From positions 49,898-113,897 of IMG/VR virus record IMGVR_UViG_3300033149_003115: a stretch of 64,000 nucleotides of DNA; one strand, 5' to 3'. The position numbers and the translations under genes were made by a program. The notes under the pieces were generated by a model that did not search any database, was not told the origin of the DNA, and saw only the letters and a program-made list of their open reading frames with translations. Numbering within the stretch: position 1 is the stretch's first letter; each line of letters opens with the position of its first letter. Shown in pieces: positions 3 through 57,285 of the stretch. This DNA comes from a virus.

Positions 3-335
3 AGCCTACTGGATAAAGCACTTCTACACAGACCATCCAGGTTTGATGTTAAGATAAGGTTTGAGCTACCCAGTTCTTCTGAGAGACTGAGCCTGGTGAA
101 CCTGTATTCTAAAGGGGTCAAGATGTCTAAAGAGATAAGGAGCTTAATAGCGTCCAGGACTGAGGGATTCACTCCTGCCATGATCAAGGAGGTCATAGTG
201 TATTCCAGGTTATTGTCTCTGTTCAAGGGATCAACACTGAGAGATGACATAGTGAAATCCTCCATATCCATCCTCAAGGAGAGCATGAGAATGAACAGGG
301 AGAGATATCAAGATCAAAAAGGACTAATAGTATGA
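3..335 (+). CDS. AAA+ ATPase (Cdc48/PAN/FtsH-like), C-terminal part; gene begins before the window
   Basis: Frame open from base 3: SLLDKALLHRPSRFDVKIRFELP (second region of homology with Arg fingers), then lid motif TEGFTPAMIKEVI. Confidence 0.85.
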   Translation, partial: SLLDKALLHRPSRFDVKIRFELPSSSERLSLVNLYSKGVKMSKEIRSLIASRTEGFTPAMIKEVIVYSRLLSLFKGSTLRDDIVKSSISILKESMRMNRERYQDQKGLIV

Positions 336-1574: not shown

Positions 1575-2579
1575 ATGAGTAAACTGATAGAAGTGTATGG
1601 AGGAACACTAGAAGATCTAAAAAATAGGATAGAAGAATCTCAACCACTACAAATGGCATTTCACTCAGACTCTGATGGAGTTGCTAGTGCTTGCTTATTA
1701 GCTTCGATATTTGAGGTGGAGGAGTCTAAGGACTTTCCTTATTCTCCCTCTATATTTGGAGCTTATAGAGAAGGGAACATAGCAGTGGATCTGGGATCTC
1801 CTCTGTTCCCCAGTCAGTGGAAAGGAGTTATAATAGATCATCATGATCACCCTAATCCTAGCTATCCATTGATATGGGGAAGAATACCAACTGGTGGTAT
1901 TATTTATGAGATCTTTAAGGATAGAATACCAGAGGACAAGCTATGGCTGGTGGTGTTATCCCTGGCTGGGGATGGACAACCAGAGCTAATACCTGATGAG
2001 ATATGGGATGCCTTACCAGAGCTATGGTTTGAGCAAGGGAGGGTGTACAAGGATAAGTATAGAAATGTCAAGGCTTATCCATACCCCTTCTTTAGTAAAA
2101 TATCACCACTGGTCAACTCATTGTGTAGAACAGGTAATGTGATGGGAGCTTACAAGCTAGTCAGGAGTGCTAGGGGGATCAGAGACATCATCTTTAACTC
2201 CACTGCTCTGAGAGCCCAGAGAGAGCTGTCAGATGAGGAGAGCAGAATATATGCTGGAAATGATCCAGAGAGGACACTACAGGTAGAAAAAATAGGACAC
2301 TTCAGCCTGGTCTTGATAAGATCCAAGTATCACATAGCTGGTAGGATAGCAGCTGGGTTACAAAAGGGAGATCATTACTCCACTTATATAGTGGTGAACA
2401 TGATCAACAAGGAGGTCTCTATTAGAGGACTACTGGCTAAGTATGTGGCTAACAGGCTAGCTCAAGAGGGTTATCTATGTGGAGGACATGCAGGGTTCAC
2501 AGCTTGTAGTATCTTACCAACTCAGAATATGGAAGTATTTGTTTCTAAGGTAAGGGAAGTGTTAGCTAGAATTAAGTGA
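1575..2579 (+). CDS. DHH-family phosphoesterase (RecJ/GAN/Cdc45-like)
   Basis: FHSDSDGVAS, VDLG, IIDHH and DHHA1 motif GGHAG. Confidence 0.85.
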   Translation: MSKLIEVYGGTLEDLKNRIEESQPLQMAFHSDSDGVASACLLASIFEVEESKDFPYSPSIFGAYREGNIAVDLGSPLFPSQWKGVIIDHHDHPNPSYPLIWGRIPTGGIIYEIFKDRIPEDKLWLVVLSLAGDGQPELIPDEIWDALPELWFEQGRVYKDKYRNVKAYPYPFFSKISPLVNSLCRTGNVMGAYKLVRSARGIRDIIFNSTALRAQRELSDEESRIYAGNDPERTLQVEKIGHFSLVLIRSKYHIAGRIAAGLQKGDHYSTYIVVNMINKEVSIRGLLAKYVANRLAQEGYLCGGHAGFTACSILPTQNMEVFVSKVREVLARIK

Positions 2580-2585
2580 TCTTAG

Positions 2586-2798
2586 ATGTCTAAGATGGAA
2601 GATCCAGTGTACTCCTTATTTTTTAATACACATTATGAGGTGATCACTATTCAATCTCTTAGACCAGTATGGGTGGGAGATAAGATGGTATTTAATAAGC
2701 GTACTAAGGTGATTAGAAAGAACCTCAGTCTGATGGACAAGCTAAGGTATTATTGGAGAGATCTCAGACTATGGATAAGGATGAAGAGCTCAGGATAG
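2586..2798 (+). CDS. hypothetical protein
   Basis: 70 aa ORF closely following the DHH gene. Confidence 0.5.
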   Translation: MSKMEDPVYSLFFNTHYEVITIQSLRPVWVGDKMVFNKRTKVIRKNLSLMDKLRYYWRDLRLWIRMKSSG

Positions 2799-3002
2799 CT
2801 CCTAATGTTTATCACTCCTCTACGGGTTCAGAGGTAACATTGAGATCATTGGAACATAGAAAAGGAGCCTTTATCAGATCTAGCTTCCCAGGTTCCAGCA
2901 TTGTTCTAACTACGAGATTATCCATGCTCCAGTCAGTCGAAACTATTAGTAAGATCATTATGAGATAGCTTTGTTAATAGGAAAATAGGTGATAGAAGAT
3001 CT

Positions 3003-3278
3003 ATGAATGTCTTGAAGGATAAACTATATCGAGAATATCTGAAAATAAAAGAGGCTCGTGTAGAGCTGAATGACCTGCTATCCCAATGGGAGCACCTATC
3101 TCTAGCCTTTGGCTCAAATGAGAGCTCAGTTAAAAGACTAGAGGATCAGATCAATAATATCTACAAGGAGTTCCCATATCTCTCATCCAAAGCTGATACT
3201 CTCAATATACAGTTTCCATTGATCCTTAGGTTTATTAAGTACATGGACAAGAGGATTGGAATACTTGAAGATCTATAG
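3003..3278 (+). CDS. small coiled-coil protein with C-terminal tag (GILEDL)
   Basis: RBS AGGTGA; helical composition. Confidence 0.65.
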   Translation: MNVLKDKLYREYLKIKEARVELNDLLSQWEHLSLAFGSNESSVKRLEDQINNIYKEFPYLSSKADTLNIQFPLILRFIKYMDKRIGILEDL

Positions 3279-3293
3279 TGAAGGTGATATGAT

Positions 3294-4214
3294 ATGATGA
3301 AGGTGATAGTAACAGGTGGGTTGGGGTTCATAGGTAGTAACCTGGTGGAGAGGCTAGTAAAAGAGGACTATGAGGTGACTATCTTTGATAACTACCACAC
3401 TGGTAGCTTTGCTAATGTGAAAGAGTTCTACGATAGTAAAGTATACGATCTAACTCATCTTAGATACTTTGGTAAGAATGATGTGGTCTTTCACTTTGGG
3501 ACACCATCATCATCCCCTATGTACAAGAGGAATCCTCTGCTAGTATCGGAGGCTATAAGGGACTTTATTAGAGTGTTGGAGTATTGTAAAAGAACTAAGA
3601 GCAAGCTGGTGTTTGCTAGCTCCTCCAGTCTCTACAATGGTAACTATACCCCTTTTAAAGAGAATATGAGCATTAAGGTCACAGATTACTACACTGAGGC
3701 TAGATATAGTATGGAGAGACTAGCTGAGCTATATTCTAAGCTACATAAAGTTAGATCCATAGGACTCAGGCTCTTTAGTGTCTATGGTCCCAGGGAGGAG
3801 CATAAGAAGCAGTATGCTAATGTCATCACTCAGTTCCTATGGAAGATGTTAAAAGATGAGCAACCAGTGATCTATGGAGATGGCACTCAGACCAGGGACT
3901 TTATACATGTCAGTGATGTGGTTGATGCATGTATGTTAGCCATGAATTATAGAACTAAGTTTGAGATCTTCAACATAGGGACTGGTGATGCATACTCCTT
4001 CAATGATGTGGTAGAGCTTCTGAACCTACTACTTCTTAAGGACATATCTCCTAAGTATATCAAGAACCCTGTTAAGAACTATGTTAAGCACACACTGGCT
4101 GACACCAGGAAAGCTGAGAGAAAGCTCAAGTTTAAGTCTAAGGTTGATCTGGAGAAAGGGGCTAGAGGTTTAGTGGAGTATTACCTGTATAACAACTTGT
4201 TCGATGGGATCTAG
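3294..4214 (+). CDS. NAD-dependent epimerase/dehydratase (UDP-glucose 4-epimerase-like SDR)
   Basis: TGGLGFIGS, ASSSSLY, LRLFSVYGP, GDGTQTRDFIHV; catalytic YxxxK appears as YTEAR. Confidence 0.92.
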   Translation: MMKVIVTGGLGFIGSNLVERLVKEDYEVTIFDNYHTGSFANVKEFYDSKVYDLTHLRYFGKNDVVFHFGTPSSSPMYKRNPLLVSEAIRDFIRVLEYCKRTKSKLVFASSSSLYNGNYTPFKENMSIKVTDYYTEARYSMERLAELYSKLHKVRSIGLRLFSVYGPREEHKKQYANVITQFLWKMLKDEQPVIYGDGTQTRDFIHVSDVVDACMLAMNYRTKFEIFNIGTGDAYSFNDVVELLNLLLLKDISPKYIKNPVKNYVKHTLADTRKAERKLKFKSKVDLEKGARGLVEYYLYNNLFDGI

Positions 4215-4418
4215 ATGTCTAAAGAATATGATGGGTACGTCATTAAGAAGCTCTCCTATAGGGTGTGGCTAGTAGTGTCACCTGAAGGGAGATCATACTA
4301 TGTTATCTTAACAGATAGAAAATGGATATGTACCTGTCCTTATTACAATAGGTTTCCAAGAGCTTGTAAACATATTAGATATGTGATCAGGTCTATCATG
4401 GAGGAGAGTAAGAAATGA
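4215..4418 (+). CDS. SWIM zinc-finger protein
   Basis: CTCP...ACKHI. Confidence 0.85.
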   Translation: MSKEYDGYVIKKLSYRVWLVVSPEGRSYYVILTDRKWICTCPYYNRFPRACKHIRYVIRSIMEESKK

Positions 4419-4633
4419 CCATTTCTCCTTCATCAGGATGTTGGATATCCTCTTCTACCTTAGAAGGTACCTTAGAAGGTACATTTTCTATATTAATAAA
4501 ATGTGATATATGTGGTAGAGAAGCTGATATCAGATCTTGCTCTCAGATCTTTGTAAGAGATAAGCAGATATTCCTGTGTGAGGAATGCACAGTGAAAATG
4601 TTAGGTAAGCTAATCACTGTTGTGGATCTCTAG
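4415..4633 (+). CDS. small Zn-finger protein with C-terminal tag (ITVVDL)
   Basis: CDIC...LCEEC; contains a 12-bp duplication at 4456-4479. Confidence 0.65.
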   Translation: MTISPSSGCWISSSTLEGTLEGTFSILIKCDICGREADIRSCSQIFVRDKQIFLCEECTVKMLGKLITVVDL

Positions 4634-4643
4634 AGGTATTGAA

Positions 4644-4874
4644 ATGAATAACATAGAAGCATTTTATATTACCTTAGACTCTTTTAGACACACAGCTGAC
4701 ATTAGAGTGGATCTCTCTATTTCAGATCCCTTTAAATGTCATAATTGTGAGGGTTTTATAGACCAGGGGAAAGGATATTTTATTTTAGATCCTAAGAGAC
4801 ACAAGGTGTTTCACCTCTGTAGAAACTGTGGAAATGAAGTGTTAAAGAAGCTAGAAGTGATAGAATGTTTGTGA
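4644..4874 (+). CDS. small Zn-finger protein with C-terminal tag (EVIECL)
   Basis: CHNC...LCRNC; ATG 4644 after GAGGT. Confidence 0.65.
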   Translation: MNNIEAFYITLDSFRHTADIRVDLSISDPFKCHNCEGFIDQGKGYFILDPKRHKVFHLCRNCGNEVLKKLEVIECL

Positions 4875-4886
4875 GAGTGAATAGAA

Positions 4887-5876
4887 TTGGTTAAACTATC
4901 AGATATACCTGGAGTGGGTCCATCCACTGTGGAGAGGCTAGAAGCTAAGGGAGTATTAACTGTAGAGCAAATGTCTATTATGGATCCAGAAGAGCTTAAA
5001 GCTATTCTGGAATGTTCCCTGGCTAAGGCTAAGAAGCTGATCAAAGGAGCTAAGGATCTAAGCAAGGATGCTATCAAGATCCTAGATGGGGATGCACTAC
5101 TACAGGAGAGAAAGAGCAAGATACAAAGAATATCAACAGGTAGTAAGGATCTGGACACTATACTGGGAGGAGGGGTACCAACTGATGCACTAACAGCATG
5201 GTATGGACAGTTCAGTACAGGGAAAACACAGCTTTGTAACCAGTTGGTTATTAATATGAAGAAACAATACAATAGAAAGTCAGCTTGGATAGAGACAGAG
5301 CCTCAGACCTTGGTGATAGAGAGACTACTAGAAATATCCAAGGCTCAGGGAGTTGACTTTGATCCCAAGACTGATCTATATGTGATAACAGCTAAGTTCA
5401 TGGACTCTCCTGTTCACATGTTCAAGGCATATGAGGCTATAGAGTCTAAGATCAAGATGGGAGAGGACATAGGGCTAATAGTCATAGACTCCTTTAATGC
5501 TATCTTCAGGAGCACTTACACTGGTAGAGAGATGTTGCCAGCTAGATCAGCTGAAACTGGTAGACATATAGGGTACCTACAGAAGCTAGCATCCAAGTAT
5601 AACATAGCAGTTGTGATGACTTTACAGGTGATGGGAGTTCCTGACTCTGGTTCTCAGCTTGGAGCCATTAAGCAATATGGGATCAGAGAGGTGCCAGTGG
5701 GTCCTCATGTCCTGAAACATGGGGTTAATTACATGGTTGGATTACAAAGGATATCAGCTAATGACAGAACATGGTCAGCTATAGTGGCAGATGGTCCTGT
5801 TCCTAGGGGAGATTGTGTGTTTGTAATAGATGAGACAGGAATTAGAGACTTCAGGAGTAGAAAGGGAGTAAGATAA
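4887..5876 (+). CDS. radA: DNA repair and recombination protein RadA
   Basis: N-terminal HhH (IPGVGP), ISTGSKDLDTILGGG, Walker A GQFSTGKT, Walker B LIVIDS. Confidence 0.92.
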   Translation: MVKLSDIPGVGPSTVERLEAKGVLTVEQMSIMDPEELKAILECSLAKAKKLIKGAKDLSKDAIKILDGDALLQERKSKIQRISTGSKDLDTILGGGVPTDALTAWYGQFSTGKTQLCNQLVINMKKQYNRKSAWIETEPQTLVIERLLEISKAQGVDFDPKTDLYVITAKFMDSPVHMFKAYEAIESKIKMGEDIGLIVIDSFNAIFRSTYTGREMLPARSAETGRHIGYLQKLASKYNIAVVMTLQVMGVPDSGSQLGAIKQYGIREVPVGPHVLKHGVNYMVGLQRISANDRTWSAIVADGPVPRGDCVFVIDETGIRDFRSRKGVR

Positions 5877-6116
5877 ATGAGTAATATAGCTACTTTTTCT
5901 ATTAGCCCTAAAACTTGGACATCAGTCAAGAAAAGGTGTCCATTAATAGAGATATGTAATAGGAAAATACCAGAAGACATATTTAAGTTCACTTGTATGT
6001 CCACTGACTACGTATATTGTGAATACTTTAAGGAACATGCTACTAAGGATATGCTAGACAAGATATTCAAAGAGCCTAAAAAGTGGTTAGCTATGAGAGT
6101 AGCTGAGGACATATAA
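5877..6116 (+). CDS. small Cys-containing protein with C-terminal tag (RVAEDI)
   Basis: CP...C...C...C; abuts radA stop. Confidence 0.65.
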   Translation: MSNIATFSISPKTWTSVKKRCPLIEICNRKIPEDIFKFTCMSTDYVYCEYFKEHATKDMLDKIFKEPKKWLAMRVAEDI

Positions 6117-6117
6117 G

Positions 6118-6450
6118 ATGAATAGCTATCTTGTAGTTCCTTTCTTAGAGACAGTGTACTTCCTCATAGGGTTGAACTTTGGTAGAGCATTTGGTAAGAA
6201 GCTGGATCAAGAGATACAGAGAAGTGAATGGTATAAGAGGAGATCCAAACCTACTAGATGGATGATCAGGAGAATGTTGGACTTTACTCATCACTGGTAC
6301 ATAGGGGCATTAATGATGATTTATTCTAGCTGTCCAGAAACCTACTGGTTCGGAGCTGGATTACTAATAGACGACTTACCAGACATTCCAAGAAGAATCA
6401 AATCAGTTTTAGCTGATTTAAAGAAAATGGCAAAAGAAAATAATCCTTAA
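6118..6450 (+). CDS. small membrane protein; 3' half apparently supplied by the homing-endonuclease element
   Basis: Hydrophobic segments and HHWYIG motif; residues from 6301 are duplicated at 6930-7064. Confidence 0.75.
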   Translation: MNSYLVVPFLETVYFLIGLNFGRAFGKKLDQEIQRSEWYKRRSKPTRWMIRRMLDFTHHWYIGALMMIYSSCPETYWFGAGLLIDDLPDIPRRIKSVLADLKKMAKENNP

Positions 6451-6929
6451 AGATATTATGAGGTTAGAATATTGGACTGGTCTTATATAGCTGGGTTTAT
6501 AGATGGTGAAGGCAATATTGGATTGATGAAAAGACGAGGCACTAAAAGAATAGAACCTTATTTGAAGATGGTGAACTCAAATAGAGAAGTTCTTGAAGAA
6601 ATCGAGAAATTCATAGGAGCTGGTGTTGTGAGGTTAAATAACAAAGGTAGCTTTAAAAAGAACTGGAGGAAAACTTATGTTCTTGTGTTCAACTCTAGAG
6701 ATAATATTAGGACTATCTTAAAAAATTGTATAAATGATTTAATAGTAAAACAGAGACAAGCTGAGCTCATGTTAGAGTTCATTAAAATTAGAGATCTCAA
6801 ATGTAGATCAGGTTCCCCCTTAAAAGGGAGATCAAGAGGTTCTTCAAGCTTTGATGAAGAATTAAAAATATATGAAGAGATGAAAAAGTTAAACTTTCAA
6901 CGAGGTAAGGCACATTATAAATAGAAAGG
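6301..6929 (+). mobile_element. homing-endonuclease element carrying a replacement 3' end of the target gene
   Basis: Bounded by two copies of the IGALMMIYS-coding sequence; AT-richer than flanks. Confidence 0.7.
6472..6924 (+). CDS. free-standing LAGLIDADG homing endonuclease (single motif)
   Basis: WSYIAGFIDGEG, LIVKQRQAELMLEF. Confidence 0.92.
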   Translation: MDWSYIAGFIDGEGNIGLMKRRGTKRIEPYLKMVNSNREVLEEIEKFIGAGVVRLNNKGSFKKNWRKTYVLVFNSRDNIRTILKNCINDLIVKQRQAELMLEFIKIRDLKCRSGSPLKGRSRGSSSFDEELKIYEEMKKLNFQRGKAHYK

Positions 6930-7064
6930 ATAGGAGCACTTATGATGATTTACTCTAACTGTCCAGAGACTTATTGGTTTGGAGCTGGTATCCTGGTTGA
7001 TGATCTCCCTGATATCCCTAGAAGAGTAAAAGAGGTAATGTCTGATCTGAGGAGAGAGCCTTAA
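6930..7064 (+). pseudogene. displaced original 3' half of the 6118 membrane-protein gene
   Basis: Translates IGALMMIYSNCPETYWFGAGILVDDLPDIPRRVKEVMSDLRREP*, versus IGALMMIYSSCPETYWFGAGLLIDDLPDIPRRIKSVLADLKK in the upstream gene. Confidence 0.85.
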
Positions 7065-7067
7065 AGA

Positions 7068-7727
7068 ATGACTATCTATGTTGATATCCATGAGCCGTCT
7101 TCTATGTCCACTAAGCTCAAACACCTTGGGGTGGATGTCAAGGTGATGGACCTTAAGGTGGGGGACTACTGGGTGGGAGATGCCATGATAGAGCGTAAGA
7201 CCATAGATGACTTCCTCAGATCCATAGTACAGAAGAGATACTATAAGCAGCTTTACAACATGATGAAGAACACCAAGAAGGGGATGGTCTACATTACTGG
7301 AGTATATCCCAAAGTACCTCCGATGAGGAGAGTTGGGGGTAAGCTAAGACCTATAGACATAGAAAGTGTGTTGAGGACTCATAGGATCGTTAGCTATTAT
7401 TCCTTTAGAATACCAGTGTTCCATGTTAGCTCTGATGATGATCTCATCAAGGATCTGCTGGAGTATCATACCAAATCAGGTAAGAATGTCTCTCTCAAAC
7501 CCCTGGACATCAGACGTAAAGCTGATAGCCTGGAGGATATCAGGACTAACATATTTGGATCCATACCAGGGATAGGGAGGAAGACAGCTAACTACCTGGG
7601 TAAGCATCTCTCTCTAGAGAGTGTGTTCTCCATGTCGGTGGATGAGCTTAGAGATCTTAAAGTAGGAAATAAGAGATTAGGAAAGAGAGGTGAGCACATA
7701 TACAATGTCTTCCATGATAAGAGATAA
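7068..7727 (+). CDS. XPF/ERCC4 (Hef-like) structure-specific nuclease
   Basis: YVDIHE, VGDY, IERKTIDDFLRSI, C-terminal HhH IPGIG. Confidence 0.9.
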   Translation: MTIYVDIHEPSSMSTKLKHLGVDVKVMDLKVGDYWVGDAMIERKTIDDFLRSIVQKRYYKQLYNMMKNTKKGMVYITGVYPKVPPMRRVGGKLRPIDIESVLRTHRIVSYYSFRIPVFHVSSDDDLIKDLLEYHTKSGKNVSLKPLDIRRKADSLEDIRTNIFGSIPGIGRKTANYLGKHLSLESVFSMSVDELRDLKVGNKRLGKRGEHIYNVFHDKR

Positions 7728-7929
7728 GAAGGATGTTGAGCTAGGAAAGGATATACCCTCTATCAAGAAGCAGCTAGGTAGACCTGTCACATGCTTTGGA
7801 TGTGGTAAGATAATAGAGAACCTAGAGGACATCAGGTGGGGTAGAGTAGTGATAGAAATGGGTAATCTAAGGTTTAGATACCTGGCTCCATTCTGTAGTG
7901 ACAAATGTGTGGTCACTTATGAGCTGTGA
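7705..7929 (+). CDS. TRASH/MYM-type Zn-finger protein with C-terminal tag (VVTYEL)
   Basis: CFGC...FCSDKC; start codon uncertain. Confidence 0.65.
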   Translation: MSSMIRDKKDVELGKDIPSIKKQLGRPVTCFGCGKIIENLEDIRWGRVVIEMGNLRFRYLAPFCSDKCVVTYEL

Positions 7930-7983
7930 GATGAAATATCGGTTAGTATCGGATCATAGTAACAACCTAAAGGAGGATACGAG

Positions 7984-9012
7984 ATGAGTGAGAAGATACC
8001 TAAGAAAATAGTAGATAGGTTAGTGAAACACTCAGAGCAATATGGAATATCCATGGATGAGCTGAAAGAGGAGTACATGGAATACCTAGGACAAGTGAGA
8101 AAGGAGTTCAGTGATCTACCAGAGAGGAAGCAAAAGGTCCTGGCATACAGAAGACTAAAAGCAAGGCTGAAAGCTGAGGAGGGTGGGATTGGATCCAGAG
8201 CAGTTATGCACAGTGCTTTCTTCATAGGAGAGTCAGGGTTACAGAATACAGCTGATCAGATGATAGCTAAGATAAAGAGAATGTCAACTGAGGAGCAAAG
8301 GATCTTTCATCCTGATCCCAACACGTGGCTAGACTACAGAGAGGGTGACACCTACCTTAAACCAATAGAGGGATATGATCATAGGACATACTATGCTGTT
8401 GGATCAAGTGGTAAGGAGATAGACAAGAGCAGGTTAGGATTCATGGCTATACAGGCATGGAGGAAAGCTGCTACAGCCCTGAGCCCTGAGCTAGGGGTTG
8501 TGTATAACTTCAGAGCTATCAACAATGGAGGGGACAAGCAGCTCAAGTACTATGATCTGAATGCTACTGAGATAACCAGGCTAAGAGAGTCCTCTAAGCA
8601 GCTAACAGAGGATGAGAAAGAGTATCTGATAAGGAACTGTGGATGGGAGATATACACACTAGCAGACTTGGACATGTTGTATAAGACTCATTTCCAAGCT
8701 AATGAGCTAAATGGGAATAGAGTCTTCGATAGACAACCAGTCTTCATAGAAGCTGATGTCTCTAACATAGTTTTTAGAGATGATAGATCTACCAGAGTGT
8801 CCCTGGATGATGAGCTGGAGACAGGGGATTTCGTTTCAACTGCTTATGTCCCACACTACTTACCTATTAAGTTCAAGCAGGGAGATAGGGTAATATTTCT
8901 AGCAGAGCTTGGAGAGATCACATCCAGGACAGGTGATACCAGCACAGTGCTATTTGTCAAGGGGTACTTTAGAGTCCCAGAGTCTAGTAAAGCAATAGAC
9001 TTCCTAGACTAA
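7984..9012 (+). CDS. putative OB-fold single-stranded DNA-binding (RPA-like) protein
   Basis: Helical N-terminus plus beta-rich OB-like C-terminus; replication context; own RBS and T-tract terminator. Confidence 0.5.
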   Translation: MSEKIPKKIVDRLVKHSEQYGISMDELKEEYMEYLGQVRKEFSDLPERKQKVLAYRRLKARLKAEEGGIGSRAVMHSAFFIGESGLQNTADQMIAKIKRMSTEEQRIFHPDPNTWLDYREGDTYLKPIEGYDHRTYYAVGSSGKEIDKSRLGFMAIQAWRKAATALSPELGVVYNFRAINNGGDKQLKYYDLNATEITRLRESSKQLTEDEKEYLIRNCGWEIYTLADLDMLYKTHFQANELNGNRVFDRQPVFIEADVSNIVFRDDRSTRVSLDDELETGDFVSTAYVPHYLPIKFKQGDRVIFLAELGEITSRTGDTSTVLFVKGYFRVPESSKAIDFLD

Positions 9013-9026
9013 CCTATTTATTCCTC

Positions 9027-9037
9027 TCTTTTTTTTT
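9027..9037 (+). terminator. oligo-T archaeal-type terminator
   Basis: Long T run just after the stop at 9012. Confidence 0.55.
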
Positions 9038-9052
9038 AATGTAAGAGGTGAT

Positions 9053-9352
9053 TTGTTTATGATGATAATTGGAGTAGAGATCAAAGATGCCATAAGGGTA
9101 AAGGGGAGAATAGTCTGGAATAACCCTTATAGGAGAGAGAAAGGACCCAGGTCTGATAAGCATCCTGTGTTTAGAGTTAAGAACAGGAGTCTGAGGACTT
9201 TGATGTGGTTGTATGGTTTATTTAGAGAGGAGGGTGTTGTCCCATCAGCTATGGATTTTTCTCTATTAACCGAGGTGATCAGTAAGAAGATCGGTATCAC
9301 TAGATATGGAGCTTATGACTATGCTAGAGCATTGTCCTATATTACTTCATAA
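9053..9352 (+). CDS. hypothetical protein, possible winged helix
   Basis: RBS GAGGTGA; C-terminal HTH-like ISKKIGITRYGAYDYARAL. Confidence 0.6.
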   Translation: MFMMIIGVEIKDAIRVKGRIVWNNPYRREKGPRSDKHPVFRVKNRSLRTLMWLYGLFREEGVVPSAMDFSLLTEVISKKIGITRYGAYDYARALSYITS

Positions 9353-9380
9353 TTAAGTAGAAAAGAGGTGAACTAAGAAT

Positions 9381-10277
9381 ATGAGTGATGGATATAGTAG
9401 GTTATGGGAAGAGAAGGGTGATGAGTGGGAGATCCTGTATCTAAGCCCTGATGAGATCAAGGGGATATCCCAGTACAATGCTAGGAAGACATTCCCTGAT
9501 AAGGAGCTAGAGGAGCTGGTGATCTCTCTGAGAGAAGCTGGTATTAACACCAGACCTATCATCCTGGACCAGCACAATGAGGTGGTGGAGGGTGGTAGAA
9601 GATATCAAGCAGCTCTCAAAGCTGGGCTAGAGAAGGTCTTCTGTCTTAGAAAGACCATGACACCTCTGGAGGCTAAAGTAAGATCCTTCATAGAGAACGA
9701 GCTATCATATGACATGACTGAAAGAGACAGATATCTCTTTGCTAAGGATCTGGTTGAGAAAGAGGGGATCAAGCCAGAGGACATAGCTTTCATAGTGGGA
9801 AGATCACATAGCACTGTTAGAGAATGGTTAGCCTATGAGAAATACCCAAAGGTGCTCTCAGAATCTGATGCCAGGGATGTGTATGATACTCAGTCAGCTA
9901 GAAAGAGAAAGATCCTGAGGGTCACTATAGATAACCCAGCCTTCCAGGATGATCCAGAGGCTGCTCTCAAGCTAGCAAAACATCTGGACAAGATCAGGCA
10001 TAGGACACTGGACGATATTAAGCAGGATGTCAAGGAGGGAGTCTTCAACTCTCATGCATCAGAGAAGGTGGATAGGATAGTGAGGAGGGAGGAAGAGCTC
10101 TCATCACACCCTGAGAAGTTTAGGCTTAGACATCTAAGGGTCCCTAGAGAGCTGGACAGGAGGCTGATCAAGGTATTCAAGTTTGATTATCCCAAGGATC
10201 CAGTGGAGGATGCTATAGTGAAGATCCTGGAGGACTATGTGAATACAAGAGAAAAAGAGCTGGGGTTTGTACGATGA
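9381..10277 (+). CDS. ParB/Spo0J-family protein
   Basis: NARKTF, PIIL, VVEGGRRYQA, SFIENE, HTH IAFIVGRSHSTVREWL. Confidence 0.88.
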   Translation: MSDGYSRLWEEKGDEWEILYLSPDEIKGISQYNARKTFPDKELEELVISLREAGINTRPIILDQHNEVVEGGRRYQAALKAGLEKVFCLRKTMTPLEAKVRSFIENELSYDMTERDRYLFAKDLVEKEGIKPEDIAFIVGRSHSTVREWLAYEKYPKVLSESDARDVYDTQSARKRKILRVTIDNPAFQDDPEAALKLAKHLDKIRHRTLDDIKQDVKEGVFNSHASEKVDRIVRREEELSSHPEKFRLRHLRVPRELDRRLIKVFKFDYPKDPVEDAIVKILEDYVNTREKELGFVR

Positions 10278-10489
10278 GGGTAGTGATAATCTTTGACACA
10301 ACTGAACCATCATTTGAAGCTGAAGTGTTCCATGATGGGGTCAAGAAGAAGAACCTTAGTAACCTGTTCTTGTTACTAAGACCCACTCAGCTTCCCATAT
10401 ATGAGACCTTCCAGAACATCCTATTTTATGATATTTTAGAAAAAGGGATCAATGCTGTTAAGAAAGAAAGAGTGGTAGAGGAGCTATAG
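10274..10489 (+). CDS. small protein with C-terminal tag (RVVEEL)
   Basis: ATGA overlap with ParB stop; abuts polB start. Confidence 0.65.
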   Translation: MRVVIIFDTTEPSFEAEVFHDGVKKKNLSNLFLLLRPTQLPIYETFQNILFYDILEKGINAVKKERVVEEL

Positions 10490-13078
10490 ATGAGGCTCTG
10501 CCTGACCAATATAGACTACAAGATAGAGGACAATGCTCCAGTTGTTTACATGTTTGTGAGGGACATAGAGGGGAATAGGTACATCATTAGAGACAATAGC
10601 TTTGAGCCTTATTTCTATATTAGAGAGAAAGACTACAATGTCTTGAGACTGGATGACAAGAGGAGAGGGTGCATTAAGAGAGTTGAGAAGGGGAACTTCA
10701 AGCTCTTAAGGGCTAGTAGAAGAGGAGTGAAGATAGTAACTTATTTACCTGGTCAGGTCAGGGAGCTCAGGAACTGGTTACACTCTATGAGGGATAGGAG
10801 GGAGCATCCCAGAGGGATAGAGACGTATGAAGCTGATGTGTTGTTTGTCTATAGATACCTTATAGATAGGAAGATCATCAATGGGGTGGAGATAGATGAC
10901 AAGTATTTCAGGATATGTAAAGACCTTGGATATATCCCCTGGAGTGATGAATATTGTGGACCAGCAAATGTTGAGTTCTCCAGGGTTAGATGTTTGTTTA
11001 TAGATATTGAGGTCACAGACGGGATCCCCAAAGAGGGGTACACATCCCCAGTGACCGTGATAGGGACTTATGACTCTTTCACCAGACAATACCATGTGTT
11101 CTATTGGAGGGGATCCCATTATTCTATCTCATCTGATCATATCATATACAGCAGATCAGAGGATGGCATGTTTGTTAGGTTCTTGGAGTATGTTAGCAAG
11201 ATAAACCCAGATCTTATCCTCTCCTTTACCAAGTTTGACATGTTGTATCTTATCAAGAGGATGAGAAAGATCAGGCTAGATCCCTCAGTGTTATCTCAGA
11301 TAGGGACAGTGAAGTGTTATGACAAGATGGAGAGAGTGAGCATAGGTGGTGTTGAGTACATAGACCTGGGACAGGTGTACAAGAAGGTGGTGAGAGGACA
11401 GAAATGGGAGACTCTGGATGCTATCTCTAACAGGGAGCTAGGGTATGGTAAGAAGAGGCTAAGCAAGGGTGATATATACTCTACCTGGATACATGATTAT
11501 AGGAGTGTGTTACTCTATAACCTCAGAGATGTGTTCTTGATCAAGAAGCTAGATGAAAAGCTTGATCTTGTGGATTACTTGGATGTTATCAGGAGAATAG
11601 TGGGGTGTAGGTTCAATGATGCTATGTTTGCAGCTAGAGTGGCTGATATCCTCTACCTGAGGTTGCTAAATGGGAAGCTAGCCTTGTTCTCTAGACCTAT
11701 GGAGAGAGCTAAAAGAGGGTACCTGGGAGCAATGGTGTACACAGCTAAGAAAGGTATTTACGATCATGTTGTGTGTCTGGACTATAGGTCATTGTACCCC
11801 TCTATCATCAGGGCTTACAACATTGGCTATAACACCTATGATCCGATAGCTGGGGATATAGTGATAGCTGAGAACTACAAGTACAGGAGTGATGTCCAGA
11901 GCTGGACTGTTAAGATATTAAATGATCTAAGTCCTCTCCTGGATGAGAACAAGAGAGAGATAGAGAAAGCTAAGAAGGCTAAGGACTTTGCTGAGGTTAA
12001 GAGACTAAAGAGAAGACGTATGGCTCTGAAGTCTATTGTAAATGGTATCTATGGCTTCTATGGGTATGCAGGGAACCCAGATGAGCATCACCCAGCTGCT
12101 AGGTTATATTCATCCGACATAGCAGAGTCTATCACAGTAGCAGCTAGGAAGCTACTAGAGAAGACATGGAGCATAGTCGGGGATCTGGGGTATGAAATGG
12201 TGTACTCTGACACAGACTCAGTATTTGTCAAGCTAAAGGGGACTGATAACTACATGGATGAGAGCATGGAGCTTAAAGACAAGATAGAATCCAGGTTGTG
12301 GAGCTATATCAGGGAAAGATGGAGGATAGACCCTTCTAACTTCATACTAGACCTGGAGGATGTCTATAAGAAATTTGTGATATTGACTAAGAAGAGATAT
12401 AGTGCTCTGACCATAGATGGGGATAGAATAAACAAGGGACTGGAGATAGTCAGGAGGGATCAATCAGATCTGACGGTGGAGACCCAGAAGGGGTTACTGG
12501 ATCTGATCCTTAAGGATGCTCCAGTATCCAGGATTAGGGAGTTTGTCAAGGGACAGATAAGGAAGCTAGACACTGAGCCATTGGAAAGGGTGGGGATAGC
12601 TGCTATGCTTCAACAGAGGAGGGACAGCTACACCAGTGCAGTTATCCATCTCAAGGCATTTGAATTTGCTAATCAGGTGTTGAAGCTCGATCTAGAGGAG
12701 GGTGAGAGGTTCTATTATATCTTCATCAAGCCATACAAGCTAAAGAGAGTGAGGATAAGGATCAGGCTGAGCAGCCCAGTCATGAGCTCTCAGGGAGAGA
12801 TCTATGATGTGGTGAGCGATGAGGGCAAAGGGTACCAGAATAAGAAGATAGCTCACATCACCAGGGACATTATCAGTGATGTGGCTGGGTTCAGATCATC
12901 ATCTGATCTTGAGAGAGCTCCTGGGATAGTTGTGGACAAGGAGAGGTTATTGGATCGTACTATAAAGAGCAAAGTGGAGGATCTCCTAGATCTGGTGGGT
13001 TTATCATGGAGTGAGATATTAGATGAGACAAGGAACCAAAAGAGATCAAGGCTTGACTACTATTTCTCATCAAGCTAA
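10490..13078 (+). CDS. polB: family B DNA polymerase
   Basis: Exo motifs FIDIE and YNLRD; DYRSLYPSII, KSIVNGIYG, YSDTDS, KKRY; C-terminal PIP-like RSRLDYYF. Confidence 0.97.
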   Translation: MRLCLTNIDYKIEDNAPVVYMFVRDIEGNRYIIRDNSFEPYFYIREKDYNVLRLDDKRRGCIKRVEKGNFKLLRASRRGVKIVTYLPGQVRELRNWLHSMRDRREHPRGIETYEADVLFVYRYLIDRKIINGVEIDDKYFRICKDLGYIPWSDEYCGPANVEFSRVRCLFIDIEVTDGIPKEGYTSPVTVIGTYDSFTRQYHVFYWRGSHYSISSDHIIYSRSEDGMFVRFLEYVSKINPDLILSFTKFDMLYLIKRMRKIRLDPSVLSQIGTVKCYDKMERVSIGGVEYIDLGQVYKKVVRGQKWETLDAISNRELGYGKKRLSKGDIYSTWIHDYRSVLLYNLRDVFLIKKLDEKLDLVDYLDVIRRIVGCRFNDAMFAARVADILYLRLLNGKLALFSRPMERAKRGYLGAMVYTAKKGIYDHVVCLDYRSLYPSIIRAYNIGYNTYDPIAGDIVIAENYKYRSDVQSWTVKILNDLSPLLDENKREIEKAKKAKDFAEVKRLKRRRMALKSIVNGIYGFYGYAGNPDEHHPAARLYSSDIAESITVAARKLLEKTWSIVGDLGYEMVYSDTDSVFVKLKGTDNYMDESMELKDKIESRLWSYIRERWRIDPSNFILDLEDVYKKFVILTKKRYSALTIDGDRINKGLEIVRRDQSDLTVETQKGLLDLILKDAPVSRIREFVKGQIRKLDTEPLERVGIAAMLQQRRDSYTSAVIHLKAFEFANQVLKLDLEEGERFYYIFIKPYKLKRVRIRIRLSSPVMSSQGEIYDVVSDEGKGYQNKKIAHITRDIISDVAGFRSSSDLERAPGIVVDKERLLDRTIKSKVEDLLDLVGLSWSEILDETRNQKRSRLDYYFSSS

Positions 13079-13088
13079 TCCTAACATA

Positions 13089-13289
13089 GTGATCACATAT
13101 CTTGATCTTGATGACTATCCACACCCTAAGCTTGATCTATCACCACCATACACTTACTCGTTAATATCTTATTGTTATGAGTGTAAAAAGAAGTTCAAGC
13201 CTAATGATAAGATTATATGGTATAGAGATTTTAAAGACATCTATAGACCCTACTGCTCTATGAGATGTCTAGTCAAGCATATTCTTTAA
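13089..13289 (+). CDS. MYM/TRASH-type Zn-finger protein (ends LVKHIL)
   Basis: CYEC...YCSMRC; start uncertain. Confidence 0.6.
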   Translation: MITYLDLDDYPHPKLDLSPPYTYSLISYCYECKKKFKPNDKIIWYRDFKDIYRPYCSMRCLVKHIL

Positions 13290-13343
13290 AGCTAAGGATA
13301 TATTCCTCTTTTCTTATTTTAGATCACACTAGAGGAGAATAAT

Positions 13344-13529
13344 ATGCCTAAACCCTTGTATAAATATTCTATGTGGTTATGTCCTCAATGTGGTAAAGAG
13401 CTAAGTGTCTCTAGTGTCAAGTATCATAAAATAGACAATGGTGTGTTCAAGAGTGATAAGGTGATAATAGAGACTACTTATGAGTGTAAAGTATGTGGGT
13501 GGTCTTACTGGGAATCAGAGGAGGTATAG
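13344..13529 (+). CDS. Zn-ribbon protein
   Basis: CPQC...CKVC; GAGGAG RBS. Confidence 0.7.
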   Translation: MPKPLYKYSMWLCPQCGKELSVSSVKYHKIDNGVFKSDKVIIETTYECKVCGWSYWESEEV

Positions 13530-13531
13530 AC

Positions 13532-13870
13532 ATGGAGACCAGGGTTCTTCTTAAGGAGTACTTTAAGGATAAGATAGTGAAGGATAAGAAATGTCCTTAT
13601 TGTGACCAAGTGTCATTAGTCTTACAAAGGGATGTTGACTACCACACATTACGTTCTTACTACTGGTGTACTGAGTGTGGATTTGCTATAAGCTCTTACT
13701 TATTAGATAACCCTGAACATGCTGAGGATGCTTTGAAAGTAGCTGTGGAATGGTATAACGAGCTATTGGAGAAAAAGAAGGGGTTAGAAAGAAGCTTAGG
13801 GTATGTAACTGACAGGCTAAGGAGAGCTGGTAAGAAGGTACTGAGATCAGTGGTGATCGATGAGCTATGA
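13532..13870 (+). CDS. Zn-ribbon plus coiled-coil protein with C-terminal tag (VVIDEL)
   Basis: CPYC...CTEC; ATG 13532 after GGAGGT. Confidence 0.7.
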   Translation: METRVLLKEYFKDKIVKDKKCPYCDQVSLVLQRDVDYHTLRSYYWCTECGFAISSYLLDNPEHAEDALKVAVEWYNELLEKKKGLERSLGYVTDRLRRAGKKVLRSVVIDEL

Positions 13871-14076
13871 CCAGGTGCGAGTCCTGTGGATCTTTCTTTA
13901 ATGGGAGGGGATCCAACAATCTATGCTTAAGGTGCTTCCTGAAGGTTCTGGAACATTTCCCATTCTTGAAACATCTGTTGTACTCATCTGATGAGCTCTT
14001 TGATCTATACTTTACCACTTATTATGATGAGCCAGTTGACAAGATCAGAAAAATGATAATAGCTGAAATACTGTAG
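13867..14076 (+). CDS. small Zn-finger protein with C-terminal tag (IIAEIL)
   Basis: CESC...CLRC; ATGA overlap. Confidence 0.65.
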   Translation: MTRCESCGSFFNGRGSNNLCLRCFLKVLEHFPFLKHLLYSSDELFDLYFTTYYDEPVDKIRKMIIAEIL

Positions 14077-14134
14077 TAAAGATATATTAAGGGTATGTAA
14101 GTTAGAGATTAGGTGTAGGAGTTGATCTTTAGCT

Positions 14135-15208
14135 ATGGATGATGTTGTTAGAGAGATAAAAAAGAGATACTGGAAAGAAATAAGTAAGAAGGCTAATGTG
14201 AATAGTTTTAGTGGTAAGCTGAGACCACGTGAGAGGAATAATAAAACAATTCCTAACACCAGAGTGTTTAGAGTGTATGTGGAAAAGAAAGAGCCTCTAG
14301 ATAAGCTTAGAACTAAGGACATAATACCTGAGAGACTTTCACTTGGGTCTGATGAGATAGAGGTGGATGTTGTTCCCATTGGTCGTATTAGGTACATGGA
14401 TGAGCCTGAAGAGGGGGGTACTAAGCCAGAGGATCATCAAAAGAGACACAGACCCATACTAGCTGGTGTTTCTTGTACTCATTTTCAGTCTCCAGCCTGT
14501 ACTTTGAACTGGTTCTTTAAGAGGAAGGTGAGAGACTCTTCCACTGGACCTATATACCAGATATTAATAGCTGGGAATAACCACTGCTTTGGAAGAGAGA
14601 ATGATGCCAGAGTGGGTGATCCCATACTACAACCATCTCCAAATGATAAAGGGGACTATGCTAAAGATCAGGTAGGATCTTTCCTCTTCAATGTAGAGAC
14701 TAAGTTTGCTAGCTTCAAGTGTCCTGCTAGGAACTCATTGTATAAGGTGTATAGAGGACTTTATCACTTAGCTCACCTTAGACCTTTAGAGCCTGTGAAT
14801 AAAGTGGACATAGCTTTTGCTATACCAAATGACAACATCGAGATCGAGTACAGGATCCTGGGGATAGATGGGAGGGTTATAAAGACATCTAGAGAGCATC
14901 ATGAGAACACTTTTGTGTATAAGAGTGGGAGGACTTCTGGGGTCACTAGCTTCACTATTATAGATAATACCTGGAATGGATATGTTGAGGGTAGAAGAGG
15001 GAAGGCATATTACGAGGATTGTGTACTATGCTATGGAGTGTGTAAGGGAGGGGATAGTGGTAGCCCAGTGGTTAGCAAGGTCAGTGTAGGAGGAACCCCA
15101 GCTCTGATGTATCATGGAGCCTTGTTTGCAGGATCACAGACTCACATGGTGTATTGTAAGGTGGAGAACATAGAGAAGGAGGCAGGTGTGAGGGCTATCA
15201 CTTATTAG
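14135..15208 (+). CDS. trypsin-like (S1, Nal1-like) serine protease with N-terminal prodomain
   Basis: RPILAGVS, NNHC (His), VDIAFA (Asp), KSGRTSG, GGDSGSPV (Ser). Confidence 0.85.
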   Translation: MDDVVREIKKRYWKEISKKANVNSFSGKLRPRERNNKTIPNTRVFRVYVEKKEPLDKLRTKDIIPERLSLGSDEIEVDVVPIGRIRYMDEPEEGGTKPEDHQKRHRPILAGVSCTHFQSPACTLNWFFKRKVRDSSTGPIYQILIAGNNHCFGRENDARVGDPILQPSPNDKGDYAKDQVGSFLFNVETKFASFKCPARNSLYKVYRGLYHLAHLRPLEPVNKVDIAFAIPNDNIEIEYRILGIDGRVIKTSREHHENTFVYKSGRTSGVTSFTIIDNTWNGYVEGRRGKAYYEDCVLCYGVCKGGDSGSPVVSKVSVGGTPALMYHGALFAGSQTHMVYCKVENIEKEAGVRAITY

Positions 15209-15255
15209 AAAGTGATAAATAGTCGTGAGAGGGATAGAATAAAGAGGAGATTGAC

Positions 15256-15471
15256 ATGAGTGAAGAGGTTATTGAGGAAAAGAGCAAAGCTGACATGATT
15301 ATAGAGACAATATCCAAGTCCACTGGTGCTGTGGTGGTGTTTTGCTATCTAGTGACCATATTCGCTGTCTTGCTAGGACTGGGGTATATTGATCAGTCTC
15401 TATTCAAAGAGCTAGTATTGAGTGGAGCATTGGTCTCAGCTGTTCTTAGACTCTTAAAGAATGAAAAGTGA
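15256..15471 (+). CDS. small two-TM membrane protein (holin-like)
   Basis: Two hydrophobic segments, charged termini. Confidence 0.55.
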   Translation: MSEEVIEEKSKADMIIETISKSTGAVVVFCYLVTIFAVLLGLGYIDQSLFKELVLSGALVSAVLRLLKNEK

Positions 15472-15478
15472 TAGGTAA

Positions 15479-16873
15479 ATGAGGATAACACGTAGAAAGC
15501 TAGCTCCTCCAGAGGAAAAAGAGCATAGTGTGATGGAGCTAGTCAGATCAGCTAATGCCAGGGACAGAGCCCTGATGTGGACTCAGCTAGAGGAGAGAAT
15601 AAAGTCAACAGTCTCCAGCTCTCAGCTAGAGACTCTTTTTCACTCTGATGGGTTAACCTTCAGAGAGGTGTATGATTATGTTGATTTCATAGTGGGACCA
15701 GGGTTCTACTTTGAAGGTGATCCCAAGCTGGTGAGGATATGTGATGAATGGAGTGATCTTGTGAGGCTTAAGAGAATACTGGAGGAGTGTGTCAAGGACA
15801 TACTGGTGGGAGGAGCTGGTAATGCATGGGTGGAGCTAGGATACAATGAGAGAGGGAGTGATATCCTAGCTCTCAGGATTCTTAACCCTAAGACGATGGA
15901 CTATATCAGGGATGATGCTAGTAAGAATGTCCTGATAGATGATGATGGTGAGCCACTGGGGTATAGGAGGATCAAGGATCAGATAAATGAGATGGAGTGG
16001 AGGAAAGACAGGATCACCAGAGATGGTGGTGTCATTTGGAGAGCTCCTCCAGGTCAGGATGGTAGGGACAGAATAGCTCATTTCAAGCTATTTGGGATAG
16101 GGGAGTCCTACCTGGGACAATCACCCCTGGAGACAGCTTACAAGCAGGCTATTATCAGGCTTAACCTCGAGGATAATGTCGGAGAGGGAGGGTACAGATC
16201 AGGAGGCATTGTAGCTTATGTTGGCAATGAGAAGTTCCCAAAGCCTTCTCCTAATATCATAGACAAGATAGTGGAGGATCTGAGAAATGTCACCACCCAG
16301 TCAGTGTTTGGGTTTCCTCACTTTGTCAAGCTGGATAGGCTACCATCCCCTGATCTGAGTGGTAGGGATGAGCTAATATTGTACTTTGCATCTATACAGT
16401 CCATAGCTATGGGGATACCCATCACCAGACATCTACACACCACATCTGGGAGGTTAGCTGCTAAGGTGTCAGCTGATATGAACCTGGACTTTGAGCAGCG
16501 TATAGCCTCTTTACAAGATAGACTGGCTGAGCAGGTGAGGGAGAAGCTGTTGTTTAGAATGTTGAAAGCTAGGAGACTAGTGAGCAAGTATAACGAGGTA
16601 CCCAAGATGATATTTAGGAGCAAAGCTCCACATCTATTGGAGAAGCTAGTGAACATGTTGTCCAGGCTTGGAAGGAGAGACCTGGTACGTAGAGATCCAG
16701 AGCTAGAGAAGAGAGTGAGAGAGGAACTTGGACTACCAACATCCTTCGTGGATAAGGAGCTGGAGGACTGGAGAGCTAGGGGATCAACCCCAAGATCCTC
16801 AAAAGGCAAGCAGGACATTGATGTTGATGAGATAGCTGAGGCAGTCATTGAGCATTTAGAAGAGTCTGAGTAG
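15479..16873 (+). CDS. portal protein
   Basis: GNAWVEL...LNPKTM, IAHFKL...YLGQSPLE pattern typical of HK97-class portals; 464 aa. Confidence 0.8.
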   Translation: MRITRRKLAPPEEKEHSVMELVRSANARDRALMWTQLEERIKSTVSSSQLETLFHSDGLTFREVYDYVDFIVGPGFYFEGDPKLVRICDEWSDLVRLKRILEECVKDILVGGAGNAWVELGYNERGSDILALRILNPKTMDYIRDDASKNVLIDDDGEPLGYRRIKDQINEMEWRKDRITRDGGVIWRAPPGQDGRDRIAHFKLFGIGESYLGQSPLETAYKQAIIRLNLEDNVGEGGYRSGGIVAYVGNEKFPKPSPNIIDKIVEDLRNVTTQSVFGFPHFVKLDRLPSPDLSGRDELILYFASIQSIAMGIPITRHLHTTSGRLAAKVSADMNLDFEQRIASLQDRLAEQVREKLLFRMLKARRLVSKYNEVPKMIFRSKAPHLLEKLVNMLSRLGRRDLVRRDPELEKRVREELGLPTSFVDKELEDWRARGSTPRSSKGKQDIDVDEIAEAVIEHLEESE

Positions 16874-16875
16874 GG

Positions 16876-17055
16876 ATGAGCAAGCTTGACTGTTGCTACT
16901 GTCACAAGCCTATTCAGGACAACAAGAGGTACTTTGTGTTGATACTAAGACAGAAGGGGACCTATGGCAACGAGCTTAGACTGAACTTTTGTAGCTTCAA
17001 GTGCTTGGAACATGTTATTAACAACCCAGCTGTCATCATCACTGAGATCCTCTAA
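16876..17055 (+). CDS. small MYM/TRASH-type Zn finger with C-terminal tag (VIITEIL); absent from the ORF track
   Basis: MSKLDCCYCHKPIQDNKRYFVLILRQKGTYGNELRLNFCSFKCLEHVINNPAVIITEIL, 59 aa. Confidence 0.75.
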   Translation: MSKLDCCYCHKPIQDNKRYFVLILRQKGTYGNELRLNFCSFKCLEHVINNPAVIITEIL

Positions 17056-21379: not shown

Positions 21380-21423
21380 ATATAGATGACATCCGAATAG
21401 CTAGCTCAATATCTTTAGAGGAT

Positions 21424-23352: not shown

Positions 23353-23353
23353 G

Positions 23354-26346: not shown

Positions 26347-26349
26347 GAT

Positions 26350-27423: not shown

Positions 27424-27430
27424 GGTGAAG

Positions 27431-31285: not shown

Positions 31286-31301
31286 GAGGAGGATGTGAAG
31301 A

Positions 31302-48047: not shown

Positions 48048-48073
48048 GCTTAGGGAGAAAGAGGTGAGCATTA

Positions 48074-48657: not shown

Positions 48658-48658
48658 A

Positions 48659-57269: not shown

Positions 57270-57285
57270 GGAGTGAGTTATAAAC

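Follow-up and report, generated by a model that had tools for sequence, protein, structure and literature searches.

A C-terminal tag shared by many unrelated small proteins of an uncultivated, very probably archaeal tailed virus

Systems built on vWA (von Willebrand factor A) and MoxR proteins have repeatedly been tied to a zincin peptidase whose substrates are small, fast-diverging proteins in which the extreme C-terminal peptide is conserved; FxSxx-COOH-type small proteins accompany the zincin peptidase in vWA-MoxR ternary systems (Kaur et al. 2020, PMC7159879), a paper that cites Haft and Basu 2011 for peptide-processing modules of the FxSxx-COOH type. The metal ion-dependent adhesion site (MIDAS) of vWA domains binds extended peptides (PMC7159879). 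A pair of MoxR and peptidase-vWA proteins is also known in jumbo phages, with a proposed role in virion assembly (PMC7824862). Here we describe a tag at the extreme C-terminus of about a quarter of the proteins of a virus known from IMG/VR record IMGVR_UViG_3300033149_003115 (genome G000). Ten of its carriers lie in the right-hand 64 kb of the record, called the window below (64,000 nucleotides, positions 49,898 to 113,897 of the record); we followed the tag over the whole genome and into three related ones. It looks like an address or docking label without a published description, and our literature search found no paper describing such a C-terminal tag.

The likeness to the vWA-MoxR peptide-processing modules is twofold: small variable proteins carry a conserved extreme C-terminal peptide in both, and zincin, vWA/MIDAS and MoxR are encoded alongside, here as a zincin-vWA fusion and a MoxR protein (G000 21207-23718). 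There are also differences. The motifs described in those modules are FxSxx, RxD, an acidic run or an FtsH-linked peptide, whereas the motif seen here is hydrophobic-acidic-Leu; those modules have one or few carriers, whereas about 50 are found per genome here; the present system is viral, and the VMAP/AP-ATPase effector was not found in the Pfam scans run. The radical-SAM gene beside the tag arrays looks viperin- or MoaA-like rather than peptide maturase-like (its 269-residue product was tried as a peptide maturase and rejected, as the best NCBIfam match was viperin-like, 53 bits against a cut-off of 180). Finally, cleavage or binding of the tag would, in this virus, be a prediction. Group 2.2 jumbo phages (Iyer et al. 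2021, PMC7824862) have the same pair of proteins (phrog_1297 with phrog_1314, DUF2201_N with DUF2201); their pair, however, was proposed to work in virion assembly and no client tag was described (PMC7824862). A link between a MoxR/vWA pair of this type and the tags is our inference.

The record (113,897 bp) is classed in IMG/VR as a complete virus genome with direct terminal repeats, and one hydrothermal-vent metagenome contains about 44% of the words sampled from the window. Greedy calling of open reading frames (ORFs) over the whole genome gave 195 ORFs with 93% coverage. They encode a family B DNA polymerase (PolB), RadA, an XPF-like nuclease, ParB-like proteins, a class III ribonucleotide reductase with its activase, several DNA methylases, radical-SAM enzymes, a portal-like protein and a structural module of HK97 type; a tRNA scan of the upstream 52 kb found none. 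As the PolB is only 22-24% identical to PolBs of haloarchaeal tailed viruses, and a comparison of the capsid protein with the phage collection gave no match, the sequence points to an uncultivated tailed virus whose host is very probably archaeal.

A preliminary description of the window had listed ten small proteins with similar C-termini, and all ten ends proved to be correct. Over the genome, 29 of the 195 C-termini match its regular expression, against about 2 in controls (shuffled tails: mean 2.5, maximum 9; random internal 10-mers: mean 1.9, maximum 8; 1000 trials). A position matrix anchored at the C-terminus found 50 matches where 0.28 were expected from the internal match rate; its scores are bimodal, with an empty interval between 6.6 and 3.2 bits. 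The same matrix matched just 2 of 1,237 C-termini in 77 unrelated PolB-containing metagenome loci, some of them from similar metagenomes. The carriers thus make up about 50 of the 195 ORFs, with the consensus [ED][ED]-h-K-K-x-h-[VIL]-[IVA]-[EDN]-[EDST]-[LI]-COOH. The motif spans about 10-14 residues, including K/R at -7 and -8, and is longer than had first been described. Terminal Leu or Ile is found in 61 of 140 proteins of up to 200 residues (about 18% would be expected by composition) and in 9 of 55 larger ones. On the genome-wide matrix, eight of the ten window examples reach 6.5 bits or more; two are weak (4415-4633 at -0.1 bits, 13023-13289 at 3.3), while their orthologues or synteny partners in relatives are well tagged.

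Nearly all tagged proteins are small (median 80 residues); only 1 of 55 proteins above 200 residues carries the tag, in agreement with the early remark that the large enzymes nearby mostly lack it. The carriers span 5.8-67 kb of the genome and all but one are on the plus strand. Most of them, at 5.8-42 kb, are upstream of the window, which therefore shows the edge of the phenomenon. All tagged genes belong to the early and replication half of the genome; none of the proteins of the structural module, including small scaffold-like ones, is tagged or tag-like. With the last 12 residues removed, the tagged proteins fall into at least 31 BLAST clusters, and the proposal that the bodies are unrelated holds: at least 31 are unrelated in sequence, half of them zinc-ribbon-like. 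Among the bodies are a 12-member zinc-ribbon family, two Cys-rich families, Cys-free proteins, a 246-residue alpha/beta protein, membrane proteins with a short cytoplasmic tail, and TRASH/FCS-like zinc proteins, where the tag starts six residues past the last Cys. Two or more CxxC pairs occur in 26 of 50 tagged and 6 of 91 untagged small proteins. The zinc-ribbon carriers have no obvious signal peptide, as judged by reading the sequences without a formal test. A homologue search with one tagged protein of 99 residues returned only the query itself.

Two other proteins have tag-like features. A 90-residue protein (window 21107-21379) ends in FFKDKILNEE, which scores 10.4 bits without a terminal Leu/Ile and could be a variant of the tag or a decayed one. 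A 633-residue protein encoded upstream of the window (G000 7856-9757; L081:7856-9757) has the tag-like LEKDRIISIL four residues before its end. The latter is 72-73% identical to its G001 and G003 orthologues, against about 50% for PolB, and the protein atlas places it only in large unnamed viral clusters.

Conservation of the tail could act on the peptide or on the nucleic acid beneath it. Averaged over the ten terminal codons of 46 tagged genes, the information content falls from 0.70 bits at the second codon position to 0.29 at the first and 0.16 at the third; we saw no conservation downstream of the stop codon of tagged genes. Leu, Ile, Asp and Glu codons are mixed in the tags: all four Asp and Glu codons (GAG, GAT, GAA, GAC) occur at the acidic positions, nine different codons encode the final residue, and the first positions of the hydrophobic codons mix A, G and C; therefore, no TATA-like run is hidden there. 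The tag always stands in the same register relative to the stop codon, whereas its distance from the following start codon is variable (quartiles -1 to 15 nt), hence conservation acts on the peptide and the tail is selected at the protein level. It had been suggested that overlap with the ribosome-binding site of the next gene might explain the motif. Tagged genes are indeed tightly packed (median gap 9 nt), and three of the ten window tails (those ending at 6116, 10489 and 13870) overlap the next gene's Shine-Dalgarno site. Nevertheless, Shine-Dalgarno-like 5-mers within the last six codons are no commoner in tagged genes (12 of 49) than in untagged small genes (18 of 78).

The relatives of this virus are IMG/VR genomes G001 (109,754 bp), G002 (128,201 bp) and G003 (107,896 bp) and metagenome fragments L002 and L003; all share its backbone, with PolB about 50% identical. 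A viral-contig search for related loci with a single PolB query found none. Each relative genome has 16-21 tagged proteins where about 0.3 would be expected. The version of the tag differs: h-x-x-h-L-L-[AMS]-x-[EKR]-[LI] in G001 and G003, [IV]-[AM]-E-E-L in G002. A matrix trained on one genome finds 3-18 matches in the others (0.2-0.4 expected), far fewer than at home; the motif is thus common to the clade yet tuned in each genome. Orthologues retain the tag while its version shifts, as in the tails VVDVL / LAVML / VIEFL, VVEEL / IAEEL and LVANDI / LANEL; the zinc protein encoded after the XPF-like nuclease gene ends in VVTYEL here, MISDLL in L002, ALADRL in L003 and ALAASL in G001. All 15 database homologues of the 246-residue protein have a hydrophobic tail with terminal L or I. 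On the other hand, a 27%-identical homologue from another viral lineage has a different end, and no tail is shared by the proteins encoded around it; the tag is thus a clade-specific add-on and not a part of an old fold. Only a distant homologue is found on two small contigs that were binned with a Thermoplasmata metagenome-assembled genome (MAG) and a MAG of candidate division Kazan. Enrichment over background, independence of ribosome-binding sites and conservation in homologues, the three points on which the preliminary description had expected to stand or fall, were thus all found.

We consider a single common reader acting in trans the best explanation of the tag, and a rather probable one. 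The ten window tails would then be part of a genome-wide C-terminal short linear motif, the free end of which (two or three hydrophobic residues, one or two acidic or polar ones and a terminal Leu/Ile, with Lys/Arg ahead) would be bound by one receptor. The receptor would dock, sort or hand over many unrelated small proteins as one class, and would have co-evolved with the tags. The idea of modular adaptors with a common docking peptide is in this way retained, and selection at the protein level, unrelated bodies and conservation in homologues all speak for it. The hub that had been proposed, an AAA ATPase encoded at the window start, is not supported: neither genome search nor ORF-level blastp nor tblastn found a homologue in G001-G003, and a protein absent from these three tagged relatives cannot be the reader that the clade has conserved. 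At most, it might serve as an additional reader in G000, the genome with by far the most tags. AlphaFold2 models the 246-residue family with confidence (predicted local distance difference test, pLDDT, 86 overall) and leaves its last seven residues as coil (pLDDT 54); such an unstructured tail is as expected of an exposed linear docking motif.

The best candidate for a virus-encoded reader is a MoxR-like AAA+ ATPase (G000 21207-22442) with a DUF2201 zincin-vWA fusion protein (22432-23718). The two genes are kept in all four genomes inside the tag arrays, flanked by tagged genes, and the HExxH and MIDAS residues (DxSxS, T, D) of the fusion do not vary among the four viruses or in 81 aligned homologues. 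A near-constant acidic residue beside the free carboxylate would, we infer, suit a MIDAS site, and it is possible, though not probable, that this pair reads the tag, with the MIDAS of the vWA domain holding the acidic end of the tag. A host factor as reader is no less likely, though it too falls short of an even chance; other viral proteins share what is left, with the serine protease encoded at 14135..15208 a minor candidate as reader or processor. One could go further and propose a protein-addressing system peculiar to a clade of archaeal tailed viruses, in which the MoxR AAA+/zincin-vWA machine, or another single reader, grips a lineage-specific label on a quarter of the viral proteome; in this full form the proposal is a tentative one and would rather be doubted than believed. 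If true, small zinc-ribbon proteins of host takeover would be deployed, remodelled or disposed of by the dozen, as a single class.

Most of the dark matter of archaeal virus genomes consists of small orphan proteins, and here a shared, selected label groups about 50 of them, predicts one reader and defines which proteins work together. Should the reader be the MoxR/zincin-vWA pair, this would be a first client-recognition rule for a widespread, poorly understood module of phages and cells. The lineage-specific versions of the tag offer a natural co-evolution experiment for identifying the reader.

Several known kinds of C-terminal peptide were compared with the tag. Many tags fit the loose PDZ class III pattern x-[DE]-x-hydrophobic-COOH (E, D or N at -2; L or I at 0); PDZ_2 has no match in the virus genome, whereas 14 of 14 control genomes match. 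Clamp-binding C-terminal tails, such as the archaeal PCNA-interacting protein (PIP) box and the tails of T4 gp43, gp33 and gp55, also let unrelated proteins of one virus share a hydrophobic/acidic C-terminal peptide for one hub. Here, however, the h-x-x-aromatic-aromatic core occurs in 0 of 108 tags of the four genomes (aromatic fraction of the last six residues, 0.04), PCNA_N has no match in the virus genome (the host presumably has a PCNA), and PolB has a separate PIP-like end, L-D-Y-Y-F (window 13040-13078; LDFYL, LSSFF and LEYYF in orthologues); for these reasons, the tag does not look like a clamp-binding peptide. Since the virus encodes no PCNA, its PolB probably uses the host clamp. The proteasome-docking HbYX motif (hydrophobic-Tyr-X) is likewise found in 0 of the 108 tagged proteins.

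Eukaryotic C-terminal addresses, that is, peroxisomal targeting signal 1 (PTS1, -SKL) and KDEL/HDEL (PROSITE PS00014), and the poxvirus ANK-PRANC family, are similar in that one terminal label on dozens of unrelated proteins serves one receptor. Some tags of the relatives, such as AEEL and ADEL, do fit the KDEL-type pattern [KRHQSA]-[DENQ]-E-L; the counts are 0 of 50 in G000 and 1, 3 and 1 in G001, G002 and G003 (5 of 58). The setting differs: gene organisation here is prokaryotic, with tightly packed, co-directional tagged genes in operons and Shine-Dalgarno sites ahead of genes, and the nearest relatives of the PolB are in archaeal viruses, which speaks against the eukaryotic host that a KDEL-type signal needs. 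Also rejected were a membrane-targeting helix (the acidic end of the tag speaks against one), a DnaK-type binding site (such sites disfavour acidic residues) and a general thermostability cap.

Some observations weigh against a single dedicated reader or against the viral pair in that role. No reader was found: apart from PDZ and PCNA, both absent, the Pfam scans run showed nothing else resembling a known peptide-binding module. With more than 20,000 cluster representatives, the MoxR/zincin-vWA pair is an extremely common one, present in jumbo phages too; its occurrence here is therefore not specific to tags and is weak evidence. In the AlphaFold2 model of the 12-member zinc-ribbon family, the tail forms a confident terminal helix (residues 68-79, pLDDT about 87-91), which could be an internal structural element instead of a docking peptide. 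Foldseek found no significant match in the PDB for the model of this family or for the 246-residue one. Furthermore, the gene calls are our own greedy ORF calls, and the matrices scored the same C-termini they were trained on; the cross-genome, internal-rate and control-locus tests mitigate this circularity.

A different role for the tail would be that of a degron or timer, marking early proteins for joint removal by a host or viral protease or unfoldase; candidates are PAN or Cdc48 with the proteasome, Lon, the viral zincin-vWA protein with MoxR, and the viral serine protease. SspB-type adaptors have a C-terminal ClpX-binding tail, ssrA is a C-terminal degron, and PAN degrades ssrA-tagged substrates in vitro. 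The model first proposed for the window resembles these systems in that a single AAA+ machine would receive a variable body through its short, exposed C-terminal peptide; the differences are that there is no sequence likeness, that the presumed archaeal host is without ClpX, and that the only classic-clade AAA ATPase of this virus is missing in the tagged relatives. Confinement of the tags to the early and replication half of the genome would agree with joint removal, as would the non-polar C-terminal end, which resembles known C-terminal degrons, and the presence of a zincin peptidase and a serine protease, each conserved in four of four genomes. General C-terminal degrons, however, are loosely defined, whereas five or six positions are constrained here, acidic ones and Lys at -7 among them; also, a shift of version between close relatives would be unexpected if the host protease is conserved. 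We regard a degron as unlikely.

More doubtful still is a purely structural element, a terminal helix or strand that stabilises its own fold or zips tagged proteins together with no separate reader. The confident helix predicted for the zinc-ribbon family fits such an element, as does the Ser/Thr-x-Glu-Glu N-cap often found ahead of the tail; pinned termini could also help stability at a hydrothermal vent, the source of the virus. Yet the motif is found on membrane proteins as well, stands six residues after a TRASH-like zinc knuckle, is predicted to be disordered on the 246-residue protein, and is absent from large and structural proteins and from the control loci. Fold stability would explain neither one motif on unrelated folds nor its changes of version across whole genomes.

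A very improbable alternative is an address that sends proteins into the procapsid or a virus-made compartment. The T4 capsid-targeting sequence and encapsulin cargo-loading peptides are such capsid addresses; the structural module here is of HK97 type, and HK97-fold encapsulins take cargo by C-terminal peptides. In contrast to what capsid loading would lead one to expect, no protein of this module carries the tag, scaffold-like ones included, the tagged genes are in early and replication arrays away from the late genes, and fifty cargo species would be very many. Last, a nucleic-acid signal (ribosome-binding site, promoter, terminator overlap or termination context) read by chance as amino acids is largely refuted, indeed essentially excluded, by the nearly information-free third codon positions, the fixed register with the stop codon and the other codon-level results given above.

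Table 1. Tagged genes of the window and other genes mentioned in the text (window coordinates; scores in bits on the G000 matrix)
Position	Strand	Feature	Remarks
3..335	+	3' part of classic-clade AAA ATPase (457 aa; G000 48859-50232), G000-specific	Pfam AAA, AAA_lid_3
3003..3278	+	Tagged 91-aa protein, no zinc finger, ends GILEDL	Score 12.1
4415..4633	+	Tagged 72-aa CxxC protein, ends ITVVDL, weak on matrix	G002 orthologue ends KIIIAEEL
4620..4874	+	Tagged zinc-ribbon protein, ends EVIECL	Score 15.4
5877..6116	+	Tagged 79-aa protein, ends RVAEDI	Score 12.2; GAGG overlaps Shine-Dalgarno site of next gene
7690..7929	+	Tagged TRASH/FCS-like zinc protein, ends VVTYEL, directly 3' of XPF-like nuclease gene	Score 6.5
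10274..10489	+	Tagged 71-aa protein, no Cys, ends KKERVVEEL	Score 18.7 (top); stop abuts PolB start
10490..13078	+	Family B DNA polymerase, untagged	Pfam
13023..13289	+	TRASH/FCS-like zinc protein, ends LVKHIL, no acidic residue, weakest of ten	Score 3.3
13493..13870	+	Tagged 125-aa zinc-ribbon protein, ends VVIDEL	Score 12.3; weak Lar-like zinc ribbon (Pfam)
13867..14076	+	Tagged 69-aa zinc-ribbon protein, ends IIAEIL	Score 15.9
14135..15208	+	Chymotrypsin-fold serine protease (GDSGS), untagged	phrog_20754; orthologues 50-52% identical, kept in 4/4 genomes
16876..17055	+	Tagged 59-aa TRASH/FCS-like zinc protein, ends IITEIL	Score 7.6

As to individual entries of the table, the true start of the gene at 4620..4874 is probably the ATG at 4644. 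The G002 orthologue of the Cys-free protein encoded next to PolB ends in KERIAEEL, and in L002 the gene after PolB, the counterpart of 13023..13289, ends in CRIVGEL. In the tail of 13493..13870, GGTGATC forms the Shine-Dalgarno site for the overlapping gene that follows. Neither the serine protease nor a 342-residue core protein had any match in sequence searches of the PDB.

In two cases, genes related to the candidates above have insertions of about 330 residues when compared with their orthologues: the zincin-vWA gene of G001 (47314-49599, L103) and the serine-protease gene of G002 (76524-78605, L110). These are possibly inteins. Upstream of the window, G000 25406-31506 (L082) has mosaic blocks with 66-94% protein identity to G003 or G001, on a backbone of about 50%; the blocks include DNA methylases and a SpoU methylase, and their high identity suggests recent recombination between lineages.

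The structural part of the genome includes two capsid-like paralogues of about 355 residues each, on the minus strand (window 36006-37070 and 37706-38782); both are kept in four of four genomes, and neither matches the phage collection. Inside the tail module (window 56952-58566), a 105-residue protein made almost entirely of Cxx repeats is encoded beside a PapB-like radical-SAM/SPASM ranthipeptide maturase (NCBIfam E 1.7e-83, 281 bits, under the cut-off of 340); three more radical-SAM/SPASM paralogues are found at window 23354-27423.

A GHKL/sacsin-like ATPase (556 residues), a dual-specificity phosphatase (165 residues) and a calcineurin-like phosphoesterase (142 residues) are encoded upstream of the window at G000 2499-4169 and 6409-7629 (L081), a set unusual for a tailed virus. 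Finally, a LAGLIDADG-type gene (6472-6924, within window 6118-7064) is flanked by two copies of one protein segment: the end of the ORF at 6118-6450 and a 40-residue ORF at 6942-7064 share ...PETYWFGAG-L/I-L-I/V-DDLPDIPRR.... The arrangement looks like that of a homing endonuclease gene by which the 3' end of the target gene was duplicated or replaced.

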